DNA of 64,000 nucleotides from Candidatus Magasanikiibacteriota bacterium. GTDB taxonomy: Bacteria > Patescibacteriota > Patescibacteriia > Magasanikbacterales > GWA2-37-8. The position numbers were made by a program, and so were the translations under genes. Numbering within the stretch: position 1 is the first letter of the stretch; each line of letters opens with the position of its first letter. A model generated the notes under the pieces. It searched no databases, was not told where the DNA came from, and saw only the letters and a program-made list of their open reading frames with translations. This document shows, piece after piece, positions 4,745 through 42,895 of the stretch. The stretch lies in assembly GCA_036744835.1 (NCBI GenBank), contig DAIOHD010000001.1, positions 547,910-611,909 of the forward strand, written 5' to 3'.

Positions 4745-6034
4745 TTATTTTTTATTTTTTAAAAAAGAAAAAATTAAAACAGGTCCTATAGAATAAGACA
4801 TTAGTGTCGCCCAAGCTGCACCGGTTAAACCAAATTTTGGTATAAAAACAATGTTTAATAATATGTTTAAAATCATTGAAAAAAAACTAAGATTAAAAAT
4901 AGTATATAAATGATTTTCAGTTAGGAAATAATAGTTTAGCCCCCAAGTCAAAAACAAGCCAACCCCCGACCAAACATAAATTTGTAAAATTACCACAGAA
5001 CCACCGTAAGCTGACCCAAAAAATAAATTTATAAACCAATTTGCAAGCAAAGTTGAGGGTATAGCTATCAAAATAGCGATACTGGCCAATAGTAAATATA
5101 AATTTTTTAATCTTTTTTTATATTTTTCTTCATCTATTTTTTTTGCATTTATTATAGCCGGAAATAACGAAGCACAAATTAAAGTTGGAATAAAATACCA
5201 AATTTCTACCAATCGTACCGCGGCAGCATAAAGACCAACGGCTGTTGAACCAAGATAATATCCTATCATCACTTGATCTATCCTCATATAAATAAAAGCC
5301 GCAGCTGAAGAAATCATCAAAAGCCAAGAAACTGATAAAATTTCTTTTGCAATTATTTTATCGAATTTCCAATCGAATAATTTTAAGCCACTTTTAAAAT
5401 AATTAAACACATATAGAATACTATTGAACAGATAATCCCCGACATAAACCAACATAAACCAAATAATTCCTTTACCGGATAAAATTATCATAATTTTAAG
5501 AACTGAGCTTAAGATCGTGGTTATTATTTGCACTATAGAATTCTTTTTTGCTTGAACATTTGCTTGAAAATAATTAGAAATAACACTAAAAGAAGACAAG
5601 ATAAAAGTTAAAGCAAAAACGATACTTAAATTACGAATTATTAAGGAATCTATAATTAGAAAAGCACCAAGTGTAGTAATCAAAAAAGCTAAAAATCCTC
5701 CGCCAAGAGTAAGTATAAAAGCTGTTCCCAAAAGTTTATCTCTTTTTTCCGGAAATTTTACCAAATCACGAATTAAAATACTACTTATTCCTAAATTAGC
5801 AATAAAACTAAACATACCCGTAAATGCCAAGGCATAACTCAACATCCCAAAATTACTTGGCTCAAGATATCTTGCCACCCAAATATTTACTATTACCGAA
5901 ATAATATTGAACATCTGTGCAAAAAACATCCACCCTGTATTGGCAAAATACTTCCTAAAACCACCATGTTCCAAAACCCAATACCAACGTTGCGGAATAA
6001 TGATTTTAAATTTTTCAAACAGTTTTTCGAACAT
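4745..6034 (-). CDS. Polysaccharide flippase (Wzx/MOP-family, multi-TM)
   Basis: 429 aa, about 12 predicted TM helices, MOP-flippase-like composition. Sits in the glycan cluster. Confidence 0.6.
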   Translation of the reverse strand: MFEKLFEKFKIIIPQRWYWVLEHGGFRKYFANTGWMFFAQMFNIISVIVNIWVARYLEPSNFGMLSYALAFTGMFSFIANLGISSILIRDLVKFPEKRDKLLGTAFILTLGGGFLAFLITTLGAFLIIDSLIIRNLSIVFALTFILSSFSVISNYFQANVQAKKNSIVQIITTILSSVLKIMIILSGKGIIWFMLVYVGDYLFNSILYVFNYFKSGLKLFDWKFDKIIAKEILSVSWLLMISSAAAFIYMRIDQVMIGYYLGSTAVGLYAAAVRLVEIWYFIPTLICASLFPAIINAKKIDEEKYKKRLKNLYLLLASIAILIAIPSTLLANWFINLFFGSAYGGSVVILQIYVWSGVGLFLTWGLNYYFLTENHLYTIFNLSFFSMILNILLNIVFIPKFGLTGAAWATLMSYSIGPVLIFSFLKNKK

Positions 6035-11007: not shown

Positions 11008-12120
11008 CTATACTATTTTCTTCATCGCACTTCCCCACCACTGTTTAATCTTTTTTACAATCCATAAATCAGTGAACTTCTTACGATCATAGGGCATGGC
11101 TTGACTTTTAAGTACTTCAAAAATACCGTTTAGTTCTTTGACCATGTTTTTTTCTTCAAAAATTACATCTGTTTCCTTGTTGATATAAAAACTACGATGA
11201 GTAAAATTATTACTACCAATTGATCCAAATTTATTATCCACAGACATCGCTTTGCCATGATGCATCTTGGGTAAGAAAAAAAGTTTTGCACCGGTCAAAT
11301 GCGTCAATTCGTAAAAAGCTTGAGATGCCAATTGAATAAATTTATGATCCGGACGATAAGGTAAAATAATATTTATTTCTACTCCGCGTTTTTTAGCTTC
11401 AGTTAAAAGTTTCAAAAACTTTTTATCAGGAATATAATATGGCGTCATCAAGGTAATGGATTGTTTGGCAGAACGGATAAGTTTATAATAAAAATTTTTT
11501 AATTTTGATTTTTCCGCATCAAACATAGGTGCATGAAAAATAAAATTTATTTTCTTTTTCAAACTCGGAAATTCTTTATATTTGATAGGATGAAACAAAT
11601 GTTTAACTTTTTTCTTTTCTCCACCGGATTTAACATAACTTCGAGCAAATTGACGAATAAGCGGTCGAACACTTTTGCCCTCTAGCCGTAAATGTAGATC
11701 TCCCCACTCTTTTTCTTCCGCCATTACATTTACTCCGCCCAAAAAAGCAATCTCTTCATCCACTATCAAAACTTTACGATGGTTACGTTGCCAAATACGT
11801 TTGAACCATTTATAAAAATTAAATTGAAATCTAAAAACTTCGTTATGAATAATTAAATCAATTCCTGCTTGTCTTAGGCTTTCTTGTTGAGTCGTAGTAA
11901 GTGAAAAACTACCTAAATGATCAGCAATAATTTTAACATCCAATCCAGCTCGAGATTTTTCCATCAAAAGATTCATAAACCTTTCACCAACTTCATCGTT
12001 ACCGATGGCATAAATCTCCCAATAAATGGAAGTTTGCGATTCCAAAATAACTTGGTACATGGCATCCCAAGCTTCAGTAGCAGTAGTGTAAAATTTATAA
12101 GCAAAGCTTTTTTCGCTCAT
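11008..12120 (-). CDS. Phospholipase D / cardiolipin synthase-like protein (two HKD motifs)
   Basis: HRKVLIVDEEIAFLGGVN and HHGKAMSVDNKFGSIGSNN HxK-x4-D motifs. Confidence 0.7.
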   Translation of the reverse strand: MSEKSFAYKFYTTATEAWDAMYQVILESQTSIYWEIYAIGNDEVGERFMNLLMEKSRAGLDVKIIADHLGSFSLTTTQQESLRQAGIDLIIHNEVFRFQFNFYKWFKRIWQRNHRKVLIVDEEIAFLGGVNVMAEEKEWGDLHLRLEGKSVRPLIRQFARSYVKSGGEKKKVKHLFHPIKYKEFPSLKKKINFIFHAPMFDAEKSKLKNFYYKLIRSAKQSITLMTPYYIPDKKFLKLLTEAKKRGVEINIILPYRPDHKFIQLASQAFYELTHLTGAKLFFLPKMHHGKAMSVDNKFGSIGSNNFTHRSFYINKETDVIFEEKNMVKELNGIFEVLKSQAMPYDRKKFTDLWIVKKIKQWWGSAMKKIV

Positions 12121-40030: not shown

Positions 40031-40112
40031 AGTTCGTATTTTTAAAATATAAAAATATTAAATATTGGTTATTAATACTCTTATTTTAATCTAAAACGAA
40101 TAAAAAGGCAAT

Positions 40113-40715
40113 AAAAAAGGCGCAGCTATGAGAAGCTGCGCCAAGGTACGGTACAAGGTACGATACGAAACAGGACAAAAACAATTCTGATCCTTTGACA
40201 GGGATAAAGGCGAAGACAACAATCTCCGGTAAAAACCCGCTTCAGTAGGACCTTTTTGGCCAGCGTGTTAGCCATCAGGACCTCAAGATTGTTGTTTCCA
40301 AGAACTTGGATTGGAGAGGATAGCCAAGACCACATTACAACCTTACCTCTCAAGCAAGAAAAAGCTATTTAACAGTGGCTTGTATCTTCGCACAAACTGT
40401 AAAATAGCTGGATGTCTCTGCTTAAAAGCTACCGTTTTTAAGAAACGGAGTAAGCTTTACCGACAAACTCGGTAGGTTTAGGCATCACTTACGATACGCT
40501 TGTTGCACTGCTATGACCTAGATGAAGGAAACAGTGCATAGGTTTTTTGATTGCAGCAGATAGAACTGCTAGGTCTTTGTTGGCGACCAAGCCCCTAGCA
40601 CAGATAAAAGAAATTAAGTTGTTTTTTTCTGTGCGAAAAAACACTCCATCTTTCGGATTGCGACCGCTTACCTGTCTGCCAAAGAACATGTTTTCTGTCC
40701 AAAAAAACATAAACA
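40113..40715 (-). ncRNA. Candidate large structured ncRNA (~590 nt), class unresolved
   Basis: GC-rich (~45%) ORF-free island in a ~30% GC genome. Dense hairpins (GCACAGA..UCUGUGC, GGUC..GACC, UGCACUG..CAGUGCA, CCGUUU..AAACGG). A -10 TATAAT lies at 40722-40717. A strong terminator ggcgcagct-atgaga-agctgcgcc plus T-run lies at 40142-40113. Confidence 0.35.
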
Positions 40716-40753
40716 AAATTATAAACCTTTTTTTGTAAAAGTCAACCTGTGGA

Positions 40754-40778
40754 TAAAAAAACCCGGACTAAATCCGGG
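40754..40778 (-). terminator. Intrinsic terminator of the response-regulator gene
   Basis: cccggatttagtccggg followed by ttttttt on the minus strand. Confidence 0.65.
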
Positions 40779-42452: not shown

Positions 42453-42524
42453 GGCCCGTTCGTCTATCGGTTAGGACACCGCCTTCTCAAGGCAGTAAGA
42501 GGGGTTCGACTCCCCTACGGGCTA
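42453..42524 (+). tRNA. tRNA-Glu (anticodon CUC)
   Basis: Cloverleaf folds by hand. Acceptor GGCCCGT/ACGGGCT. D-arm GTCT..GGAC. Anticodon loop TTCTCAA (U33, CTC, A37). T-arm AGGGG-TTCGACT-CCCCT. CCA is not encoded. Confidence 0.75.
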
Positions 42525-42528
42525 CAGA

Positions 42529-42561
42529 AATACTCCAAACTTGTTTTGGAGTATTTTTTTA
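42529..42561 (+). terminator. Intrinsic terminator after tRNA-Glu
   Basis: aatactccaaa-cttgt-tttggagtatt followed by ttttttt. Confidence 0.65.
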
Positions 42562-42895
42562 GTCGCGAAGCGAGAGTCGAACGGGAAAGGGAGAAAACGG
42601 GAGTTTTCTCTTTGCAGAGGAAAGCTCACGAAAACCCGAAGGTTTTCGTGAGAGTCCCGATAAAATCGGGACGAGTGAGATTTCCCCTACGGGCTACAGA
42701 AACAAAATGCTCAGCGTAAGCTGGGTTTTTTGTTTCTGTATTCTGACCGGGGAGTCGAAGGGTGCGAATGAGCAAGGAGCGACAGCGACGAAGCGAGCTG
42801 ACGAAAATATGCCAGTGGCATATTTTCGGGCACCCCGGACGCGACTACCCTACGGGCTACAAAAATACTCCAAACTTATTTTGGAGTATTTTTTA
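42562..42895 (+). repeat. Two tandem modules, each consisting of GC-rich perfect hairpins, a 15-nt copy of the tRNA-Glu 3' end (cccctacgggctaca) and a terminator
   Basis: Direct repeats at 42511-42525, 42684-42698 and 42847-42861. Hairpins at 42591-42610, 42625-42652, 42654-42672 and 42803-42827. Terminators at 42709-42731 and 42864-42895. Confidence 0.55.

Follow-up and report, generated by a model that had tools for sequence, protein, structure and literature searches.

A probable new large structured non-coding RNA gene behind a DnaA-box promoter in Candidatus Magasanikbacteria

A gene-free island with its own transcription signals

We analysed a window of 64,000 nucleotides (nt) from a Candidatus Magasanikiibacteriota genome (assembly GCA_036744835.1, contig DAIOHD010000001.1, positions 547,910 to 611,909 of the forward strand), in which a GC-rich island interrupts a row of genes. 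The neighbourhood shows a simple arrangement: an IMPDH/GMP-reductase-like gene and a stand-alone receiver domain (response regulator) are followed by the island, and this in turn by genes for a GerMN lipoprotein, BacA/UppP and a CBS protein. On the sequence evidence presented here, positions 40711-40113 of the minus strand are an independent gene for a non-coding RNA (ncRNA) of ~590 nt. An earlier note on this DNA had proposed a large structured ncRNA without an assigned class, and this proposal is supported by covariation, by the transcription signals and by the want of a matching Rfam family.

The GC content of 40100-40700 is 0.41-0.45 as against 0.21-0.36 in the flanks (composition profile), which bears out the GC-rich island of the earlier note. 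Two open reading frames (ORFs) of 75 aa lie in it (40126-40353 and 40489-40716, both on the minus strand with TTG starts). The note had judged that no ORF was plausible and this holds: each of the six frames contains 5-12 stops under genetic codes 11, 4 and 25, the substituted columns of an alignment of three orthologues are distributed 26/21/26 by position modulo 3, i.e. without three-periodicity, and 16 gap columns in that alignment shift the reading frames. A coding region or pseudogene, including one with recoded UGA (codes 4 and 25), is ruled out by the stops, the periodicity and the indels; the island is thus not the decayed coding gene that the note had named as a possible refutation.

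The -10 box noted earlier at the island's boundary proves to be part of a full sigma-70-type promoter (40718-40745, minus strand), with TTGACT at 40745-40740, a 16-nt spacer and TATAAT at 40723-40718, in 11 of 12 positions identical to the consensus. At the other end the strong minus-strand hairpin with U6 claimed in the note is confirmed as an intrinsic terminator at 40113-40142, GGCGCAGCU-ucucau-AGCUGCGCC plus U6, with a 9-bp stem containing 7 G-C pairs and a 6-nt loop; a consensus scan places the stem-loop at 40142-40119 and the T-run onward to 40113. The predicted primary transcript (40113-40711, minus strand; ~590-600 nt) is delimited by a start put ~7 nt after the -10 box and an end at the terminator U-tract. 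Its independence, likewise claimed before, is supported by these signals and by a separate terminator of the upstream response-regulator gene at 40780-40760. The GerMN gene also has a promoter of its own outside the RNA (TTGCCT-17-TAAAAT; 40083-40111, minus strand), which abuts the RNA terminator and begins within its U-tract.

Relatives of the locus and their sequence types

Relatives were found by using GerMN homologues as synteny anchors, with L014 (almost no upstream sequence) and L100 (a different gene context) set outside the comparison of loci, which we designate by L numbers. The GerMN homologues carry the source name Candidatus Magasanikbacteria, and the loci from the genome collection belong to metagenome-assembled genomes of Magasanikbacteria or Patescibacteria. 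A gene-free stretch precedes the GerMN gene in every relative except L008-L010, the gap between the upstream gene and GerMN typically measuring ~780-860 nt, with 975-1510 nt in L012 and L013. Each such stretch opens with TTATCCACA-NN-TTGAC-N17-TATAAT and closes with an intrinsic terminator of differing sequence, i.e. a promoter and a terminator are present in all orthologous loci. About ten assemblies of related Ca. Magasanikbacteria have the promoter-RNA-terminator unit in the same slot, flanked by the GerMN gene and by either a response-regulator or a tRNA gene (loci L002, L004, L005-7, L011-13, L032, L039, L083, L093, L097-99).

By sequence the RNAs fall into types. Type A comprises the window (= L001), L032 (93% identical) and L002/L004/L083/L097 (88-89%). 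It also takes in L011 (only the 3' part), a divergent 3' half in L099, and the very divergent L012, at 41% global identity. Type B comprises L007/L039, L005/L006/L093 and L098, of which L007, L005 and L098 are 54-74% identical to each other; L013 represents a third sequence type. The predicted RNA family is confined, as far as seen, to one subclade of Ca. Magasanikbacteria, within the Candidate Phyla Radiation (CPR/Patescibacteria). Models R1 and R2 (described below) found no further copy in the window besides the one, and none in 46 other loci. In the RNA-less L008-L010 the slot (~283-1449) holds four tRNA genes, an ORF for a small Cys-rich protein resembling ribosomal protein L33 and a 118-aa ORF.

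Architecture of the RNA

The minus-strand transcript folds at -196.6 kcal/mol (z = -6.8 relative to dinucleotide shuffles), as against z = -4.5 for the plus strand. Orientation is fixed to the minus strand by the many G-U pairs in the conserved helices, in place of which the opposite strand would have C-A mismatches. Numbering the RNA such that position p corresponds to window coordinate 40718 - p, the layout consists of a basal stack P1-H2-H3, a hairpin H5, a domain of ~300 nt closed by H6, an 87-nt arm, a 30-nt tail and the terminator.

The basal stack is made up of P1 (H1; RNA 18-26/537-545), H2 (31-42/517-528) and H3 (46-55/507-515). P1, which closes the whole RNA, pairs GGACAGAAA (40692-40700, minus strand, as are all the following elements) with UUUUUGUCC (40173-40181) in the comparative consensus structure. 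In L012 the same helix reads AAGGGAGAU/AUCUCCCUU, both partners differing in 7 of the 9 pairs, and the other types likewise close by a different self-complementary 5'/3' helix. As a side observation, the 5' strand of P1 is elsewhere purine-rich and Shine-Dalgarno-like (AAGGAGG, AAGGGAG), opposite a CCUCCUU-like 3' strand. H2, the helix with the highest sequence conservation, pairs GUUCUUUGGCAG (40676-40687) with CUGUCAAAGGAU (40190-40201); its GUUCUUU/AAAGGAY is common to type B (helix 2 there). The 5' strand of H3, GGUAAGCGGU (40663-40672), lies in the conserved block ACAGGUAAGC and takes part in a G-C to A-U double change in L012. The 3' strands of H2 (40190-40201) and H3 (40203-40211) together occupy 40190-40211 within the conserved block GCCUUUAUCCCUGUCAAAGGAU.

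The junction of P1 and H2 is an insertion hot spot: L012 carries a 64-nt hairpin on its 5' side (2303-2366), the extra sequence lies on the 3' side in L011 (32 nt, 99-131) and in type B (a ~70-nt hairpin, L007 ~5823-5872). Since lineage-specific insertions of 32-70 nt are tolerated on either strand, the junction is probably exposed to solvent and of no critical importance for function.

Above the basal stack, hairpin H5 (RNA 84-120; 40598-40634) has the stem GCACAGA...UCUGUGC, with 3 double changes in L012 (GCACGAG/CUCGUGC). H6 (RNA 121-131/409-419), with UAGGGGCUUGG (40587-40597) pairing with CCAAGUUCUUG (40299-40309) and again 3 double changes in L012, closes the ~300-nt domain containing H7-H20. 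Within the latter, a central sub-domain (H14-H20; RNA 212-367; 40351-40506) displays the conserved loop UGUGCRAGGAURCAAGCC and the junction GCAACAAGC. The 3' arm H21-H24 (RNA 420-506; 40212-40298), the subject of model R2, shows double changes in H21. Between P1 and the terminator runs a single-stranded tail (40143-40172) with repeated GUACC/CGUACCUUG words (UAUCGUACCUUGUACCGUACCUUGG), which is conserved only among the close type A copies, these carrying two CGUACCUUG units.

Beyond the helices, sequence-conserved blocks between the window and L012 fall mostly in junctions and loops (ACAGGUAAGC, GUUUUUU, AAAAAACC, CUUCAUYUAGGU, GCAACAAGC, UGUGCRAGGAURCAAGCC, GGAAACA and UUUAUCCCUGUCAAAG). A possible pseudoknot would join GUUUUUU (RNA 76-82) to AAAAAAC (RNA 170-176), with both strands either invariant or ambiguous in register. 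An alternative pairing GCGAAGA/UCUUCGC was rejected, as UCUUC belongs to the covarying helix H21. Four of the five helices read by eye in the earlier note recur in the comparative consensus, namely GCACAGA/UCUGUGC (H5), UGCACUG/CAGUGCA (H12), CCGUUU/AAACGG (H18) and CCGA/UCGG (H16); the fifth, GGUCGCC..GACC, is not kept, its bases pairing instead at long range (H7/H8).

Compensatory changes in two sequence types

For type A the consensus was derived from three close copies only, and two closed sub-domains of it were turned into covariance models, R1 (RNA 212-367) and R2 (RNA 420-506), L012 being unseen by R1. In the window itself these score 183.9 and 107.9 bits, respectively. R1 recovers the full-length counterpart in L012 at 55.2 bits (E ~1e-12). 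In the resulting 4-sequence alignment 95.9% of the cells are paired and 18 of 49 pairs show double changes, as against 7.6 +/- 1.9 in shuffles, none of the 500 attaining 18, and 1-5 in slid registers. R2 matches L011 at 65 bits and L099 at the expected place with only 15 bits. Independently, a type A profile hidden Markov model (HMM) recovers L099 (E = 7e-12) and L011.

For nine helices (H1, H2, H3, H5, H6, H8, H10, H12 and H21) L012 and L099 were registered by hand through unique sequence contexts, with every pair verified by script. These hand-registered type A helices show double changes at 22 of 73 pairs, with 99.3% of the cells paired versus 42-52% in slid registers; two short strands of the table were placed at a neighbouring identical word, which leaves the counted letters unchanged.

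Type B (L007, L005 and L098, aligned with MAFFT and folded with RNAalifold) yields 190 predicted pairs with 94.3% of the cells paired. Double changes occur at 41 of the 190, versus 19.6 +/- 3.2 in column shuffles (the observed number being attained in none of 500) and 2-8 in slid registers. Thus, compensatory pairing as expected of a structured ncRNA gene is found over both shuffle and slid-register controls, and the presence of a conserved, elaborate secondary structure in both types A and B is well supported by these alignments. The covariation in homologous contigs that the earlier note had asked for is accordingly present in both types.

Rapid divergence between types

The identity of the RNA follows that of the flanking GerMN protein at short range only. 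Between the window and L002 the GerMN proteins are 78% and the RNAs 88% identical, and between L007 and L005 the values are 77% and 74%. For the window and L012 they stand at 69% and 41%, and for type A versus type B at 65-76% and about 29-39%, the latter being background. Features common to A and B are the promoter, the length class, the closure of 5' and 3' ends and the basal helix GUUCUUU/AAAGGAY within CCYUG(U)CAAAGGAY, and type B and L013 have the 12-mer UGACCUUUCCCG in common. No cross-detection among A, B and L013 was obtained with nhmmer profiles or with models R1, R2 and R3.

We read these types as one positional orthologue that appears to be diverging very fast under mainly structural constraint. 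The alternative is that A, B and L013 are unrelated RNA cassettes that succeeded each other under an unchanging promoter, for instance through rapid, conflict-driven exchange. In keeping with such replacement, the HMMs and covariance models of one type never find another, the order of branches differs between the A and B consensus structures, and the RNA types are not cleanly sorted on the GerMN protein tree; this last is a neighbour-joining tree of a single protein and hence weak. On the other side, all types have an identical 39-nt promoter, fall into one length class and share the closure of their 5' and 3' ends, the basal helix lies at equivalent positions within its CCYUG(U)CAAAGGAY context, the 12-mer UGACCUUUCCCG occurs in both B and L013, and the divergence within types is graded (93%, 88% and 41% in A; 74% and 55% in B) rather than abrupt. 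We regard cassette replacement as unlikely, if worth keeping in mind.

A promoter of the DnaA-box class

The DnaA-box consensus is TTWTNCACA, and a perfect box 9-mer, TTATCCACA (40748-40756, minus strand), stands 2 nt upstream of the -35 hexamer of the RNA promoter. Perfect TTATCCACA boxes number 5 in the window versus 0.68 expected (at 11234, 13582, 33651, 40748 and 60826, of which at least 11234, 13582 and 60826 lie inside long ORFs), and the combination of box and -35 is unique to 40748 within it. An origin of replication is ruled out, the boxes being scattered and not clustered and the cumulative GC skew being monotonic. The box at the promoter is kept in all RNA-bearing loci, the only variant, TTATGCACA in L098, altering just the degenerate N position of the consensus. 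Every sequence type retains the entire 39-nt promoter block, together with the A-tract of its spacer.

A scan of 185,579 species genomes with the pattern box-NN-TTGAC-N16-18-TANAAT returned 81 matches, against ~13 expected by chance on our own estimate, with Patescibacteria dominant. The majority of these matches sit immediately 5' of ORFs. Among ten ORFs sampled under such promoters, three encode NrdD and one a class I/II ribonucleotide reductase (RNR), i.e. 4 of 10 are RNRs, and two promoters of this kind in Magasanikbacteria drive rpsU. The arrangement of perfect DnaA box, 2 nt and TTGAC is seen, for instance, in L016, L038, L088, L094, L023 and L057. A metagenome scan with the specific promoter pattern gave two loci only, both duplicates of known variants.

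RNR genes are classic targets of DnaA in model bacteria. The recurrence of the box/-35 arrangement suggests a recognisable promoter class of a DnaA regulon in CPR bacteria, and by analogy we infer that the RNA gene belongs to this DnaA-responsive, replication- or growth-coupled class. As the same layout drives RNR genes and rpsU in related bacteria, synthesis of the RNA would be coupled to DnaA status.

Relation to the GerMN gene

The position of the RNA raises the question of a long, attenuator-like cis-regulatory leader of the downstream GerMN-uppP operon. The RNA does lie directly upstream of GerMN in the same orientation at every RNA-bearing locus, which follows in part from the use of GerMN as the anchor, and the promoter-based scans gave no copy in any other context. 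Yet P1 closes the RNA upon itself before an unconditional and very strong terminator, with no evident anti-terminator pairing. Further, the promoter of GerMN follows right after that terminator as a conserved block (TTGCNT-N17-GGTAAAAT/GGTATACT in the window, L002, L005, L007, L008, L012, L013, L098 and L099), and it is kept in L008-L010, which are without the RNA. In the L002-type loci an insertion of ~110 bp parts the RNA from the gene. Given the separate GerMN promoter, its presence in the RNA-less L008 and this palindromic insertion, the RNA is not to be taken for a leader, a role that we consider improbable.

The insertion (~5698-5804 in L002; also in L004, L083 and L097) is an imperfect palindrome, CTCAAAACTCAAATCTCAAAAC...GTTTTGACTTTTGACATTTGATTTTTGAG, around two short hairpins; it is located between the RNA terminator and the GerMN gene, resembles a miniature inverted-repeat transposable element and is absent from the window.

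Searches against known RNA families

The comparison with Rfam models proposed in the earlier note was carried out and assigns the RNA to no known family. At the gathering score, Rfam 15 finds no family except tRNAs in the whole window and in L002, L005, L007 and L008. Permissive scans of the window, L007, L012 and L013 RNAs, with E-values multiplied by 4227 families, returned only terminator-like noise of 10-27 bits. The models without a match include ROOL, OLE, GOLLD, HEARO, raiA, 6S, tmRNA, SRP, group I/II introns and RNase P. The leads offered in the note do not survive these searches: ROOL and OLE, suggested by size, match in no variant, and RNase P has neither its core motifs nor a model match, the "RNase-P-like words" being chance resemblances, of which CUAGAUGAA lies on the non-transcribed strand inside hairpin H12/H13.

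RNase P RNA nevertheless deserves attention, since Lui, Nielsen and Arkin (2021; PMC8172020) report that 10 of 35 complete CPR genomes lacked an RNase P RNA at Rfam cut-offs, and that these RNAs have large extensions or missing helices. The island could, on this precedent, encode an RNase P RNA so far diverged, and with helices so greatly extended, that it escapes the Rfam thresholds. The window, part of a genome of ~0.9 Mb, contains no rnpB match, and the RNA has paired 5' and 3' ends along with the words CAGUGCAACA, GGUAAG and, on the opposite strand, CUAGAUGAA. However, RF00010 and RF00011 give no match, even in permissive scans down to 10-16 bits of the window, L007, L012 and L013 RNAs. 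Of the core motifs, for which an E. coli sequence served solely to check the patterns, CR-I (GGAAAGUCC) is absent from the window RNA, even as GAAAGUC with 1 mismatch; there is no CR-V ACAGAA...GGCUUA near the 3' end, ACAGAA occurring only at positions 20 and 86; and P4 is absent. CR-I, CR-V and CR-IV are missing in the window RNA, or scattered and without a conserved position in other members, and CUAGAUGAA falls on the non-transcribed strand within H12/H13. The branching order, a stem, a hairpin, a 300-nt domain and an arm, is not P1-P2-P3-P4, and an essential ribozyme core would not reach background identity while neighbouring proteins stay ~70% identical. An RNase P RNA is thus a very improbable identity for this element.

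ROOL and GOLLD often occur next to tRNA genes. A divergent member of a known large "ornate" class (ROOL, OLE, GOLLD, HEARO or raiA) would agree with the ~590-nt length, near that of ROOL and OLE, with a GC-rich island in an AT-rich genome and with the tRNA gene adjoining the RNA of L012. Against this stand the want of an Rfam match in any of four divergent variants, whether scanned at the gathering threshold or permissively, the lack of any phage or viral association and a sequence conservation far lower than in those classes, so that we give this identification hardly any credence. A non-functional remnant, be it a decayed gene or a chance GC-rich spacer, would suit the narrow distribution and fast turnover of sequence, yet it is scarcely credible given the compensatory changes that keep pairs in type A (18/49 and 22/73) and type B (41), the conserved promoter and terminators, the want of a protein-like frame or periodicity, and a streamlined ~0.9-Mb genome unlikely to retain 600 nt of junk under a consensus promoter.

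Several other candidates were rejected. Group I/II introns have no Rfam match, and the element is situated between genes with its own promoter and terminator. A phage or viral origin found no support in two scans of viral contigs, which gave only chance 14-15-mers without extended similarity, or in a BLAST search of phage genomes, which gave nothing. A CsrB-like sponge was dismissed, as inspection of the consensus structure revealed no motif repeated among hairpin loops. With regard to tmRNA or tRNA, ARAGORN finds only a tRNA-Glu in the window and nothing in the island, again with no Rfam match.

The tRNA-Glu(CTC) (42453-42525, plus strand) opens a repeat region of its own (42453-42866). Its 3' end, CCCTACGGGCTACAGAA at 42513-42529, recurs in two further copies, as CCCTACGGGCTACAGAA at 42685-42701 and as CCCTACGGGCTACAAAA at 42848-42864. 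Between these 17-nt copies lie two GC-rich (~50%) segments of ~155 and ~145 nt, and the first and the third copy are each followed by a hairpin, the two hairpins being nearly identical (ACTCCAAACTT.TTTTGGAGT). The repeats look like att-type remnants of tandem integrations at the tRNA or like mini-elements.

Proposed role and significance

Taken together, the island very probably represents a genuine new structured ncRNA gene. That a new lineage-restricted large structured ncRNA best explains the observations as a whole is likely, and the functional sketch given here is much less certain. In this sketch, the paired termini, the near-consensus promoter and the RNA's own terminator point to an RNA that would be stable, abundant and trans-acting, and whose expression would track DnaA, i.e. 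the state of replication and growth. The few conserved nucleotides are mostly unpaired, and the RNA may accordingly act through its shape and a few short conserved single-stranded motifs, probably as a scaffold or protein-binding RNA, a component of a ribonucleoprotein (RNP). We think a ribozyme built on a large invariant core less likely, given that the sequence stands at background among relatives whose neighbouring protein is ~70% identical.

A number of points weigh against this interpretation. The distinct sequences number only about 8 (4 full-length of type A, 3 of type B and 1 other), pairs were counted on the very alignments from which the structures had been derived, and the table with double changes at 22 of 73 pairs was aligned by hand and so leans towards structure. 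Homology of A, B and L013 is unsupported by HMMs or covariance models, and the "family" may be three families or a replaceable cassette. Transcription as such, and the ends and abundance of the transcript, are deduced from sequence signals only, and DnaA regulation from one 9-mer and analogy. Finally, the scaffold role is an argument from the pattern of conservation, and the gene neighbourhood points to no partner protein.

A bolder version is that this is a CPR-specific, DnaA-controlled RNA in the circuitry of replication and the cell cycle of these ultra-small symbionts, forming a new RNP or RNA-only assembly, maybe under diversifying selection in host-symbiont or phage conflict; we offer it as a speculation that is doubtful at present. 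If true, the fast remodelling of the interior, into three mutually unrecognisable types that keep one promoter and a closing stem, would represent a way of evolving that is undescribed for any large bacterial ncRNA.

Elaborate, covariation-supported bacterial ncRNAs of >~400 nt are rare, and nearly all understood classes of them have proved sophisticated, acting as ribozymes or RNP machines or, in ROOL and GOLLD, forming RNA cages. CPR genomes of ~1 Mb leave little room for dispensable sequence. As far as can be judged from Rfam 15 and the searchable literature, the present RNA is the first large structured orphan ncRNA described for CPR bacteria, and it furnishes an unusual case of a large RNA with its structure kept and its sequence almost wholly replaced between close genera. 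Interest is limited by the narrow distribution and the small number of sequences. The 39-nt DnaA-box promoter, the defined closing stem and the calibrated models, two for type A and one for type B, provide handles for mining further members. The element should be annotated as an ncRNA gene and not be taken for the missing RNase P RNA in checks of CPR genome completeness.

Comparison with known systems

DnaA-box-regulated promoters include those of nrdAB and dnaA in E. coli. The likeness to these lies in the layout, TTATCCACA adjoining the -35 element here as it does before nrdD/nrd genes in Patescibacteria; the difference is that the product here is a large ncRNA and that its regulation is a prediction.

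The CPR RNase P RNAs (PMC8172020) resemble it as large structured CPR RNAs with paired termini that fall below Rfam gathering thresholds. They differ in that the RNA described here is without CR-I, CR-V and P4, gives not even a weak RF00010/RF00011 signal, has another branching and is not conserved across close relatives.

Like OLE, ROOL and GOLLD (RF01071, RF03087 and RF01998), it is predicted to be a stand-alone gene of ~600 nt with multiple domains and long-range helices in a GC-rich island, with no obvious biochemical function and no coding partner evident from sequence. Unlike them, it has no sequence or structure match to these classes, drops to background identity where neighbouring proteins are still ~70% identical, is found in few Magasanikbacteria with no phage or prophage link, and is preceded by a DnaA-box promoter. 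Whereas OLE is associated with oapA/oapB/oapC and a Firmicutes host, the neighbours here are IMPDH-like, response-regulator, GerMN, BacA and CBS genes in a Magasanikbacterium.

A further parallel is presented by 6S RNA (RF00013 and relatives), as by other housekeeping regulators in which structure is conserved and sequence is free to vary. The latter is a rod of ~180-200 nt with a central bubble, whereas the RNA here, at ~590 nt, is three times longer, bears three arms on a basal stem and has no 6S model match. The two are nonetheless alike in fast sequence change with the pairing kept, in a long stem closing the 5' and 3' ends and in a strong housekeeping-type promoter; further, the RNA described here is probably growth-coupled, and for it, too, action through protein binding is plausible.

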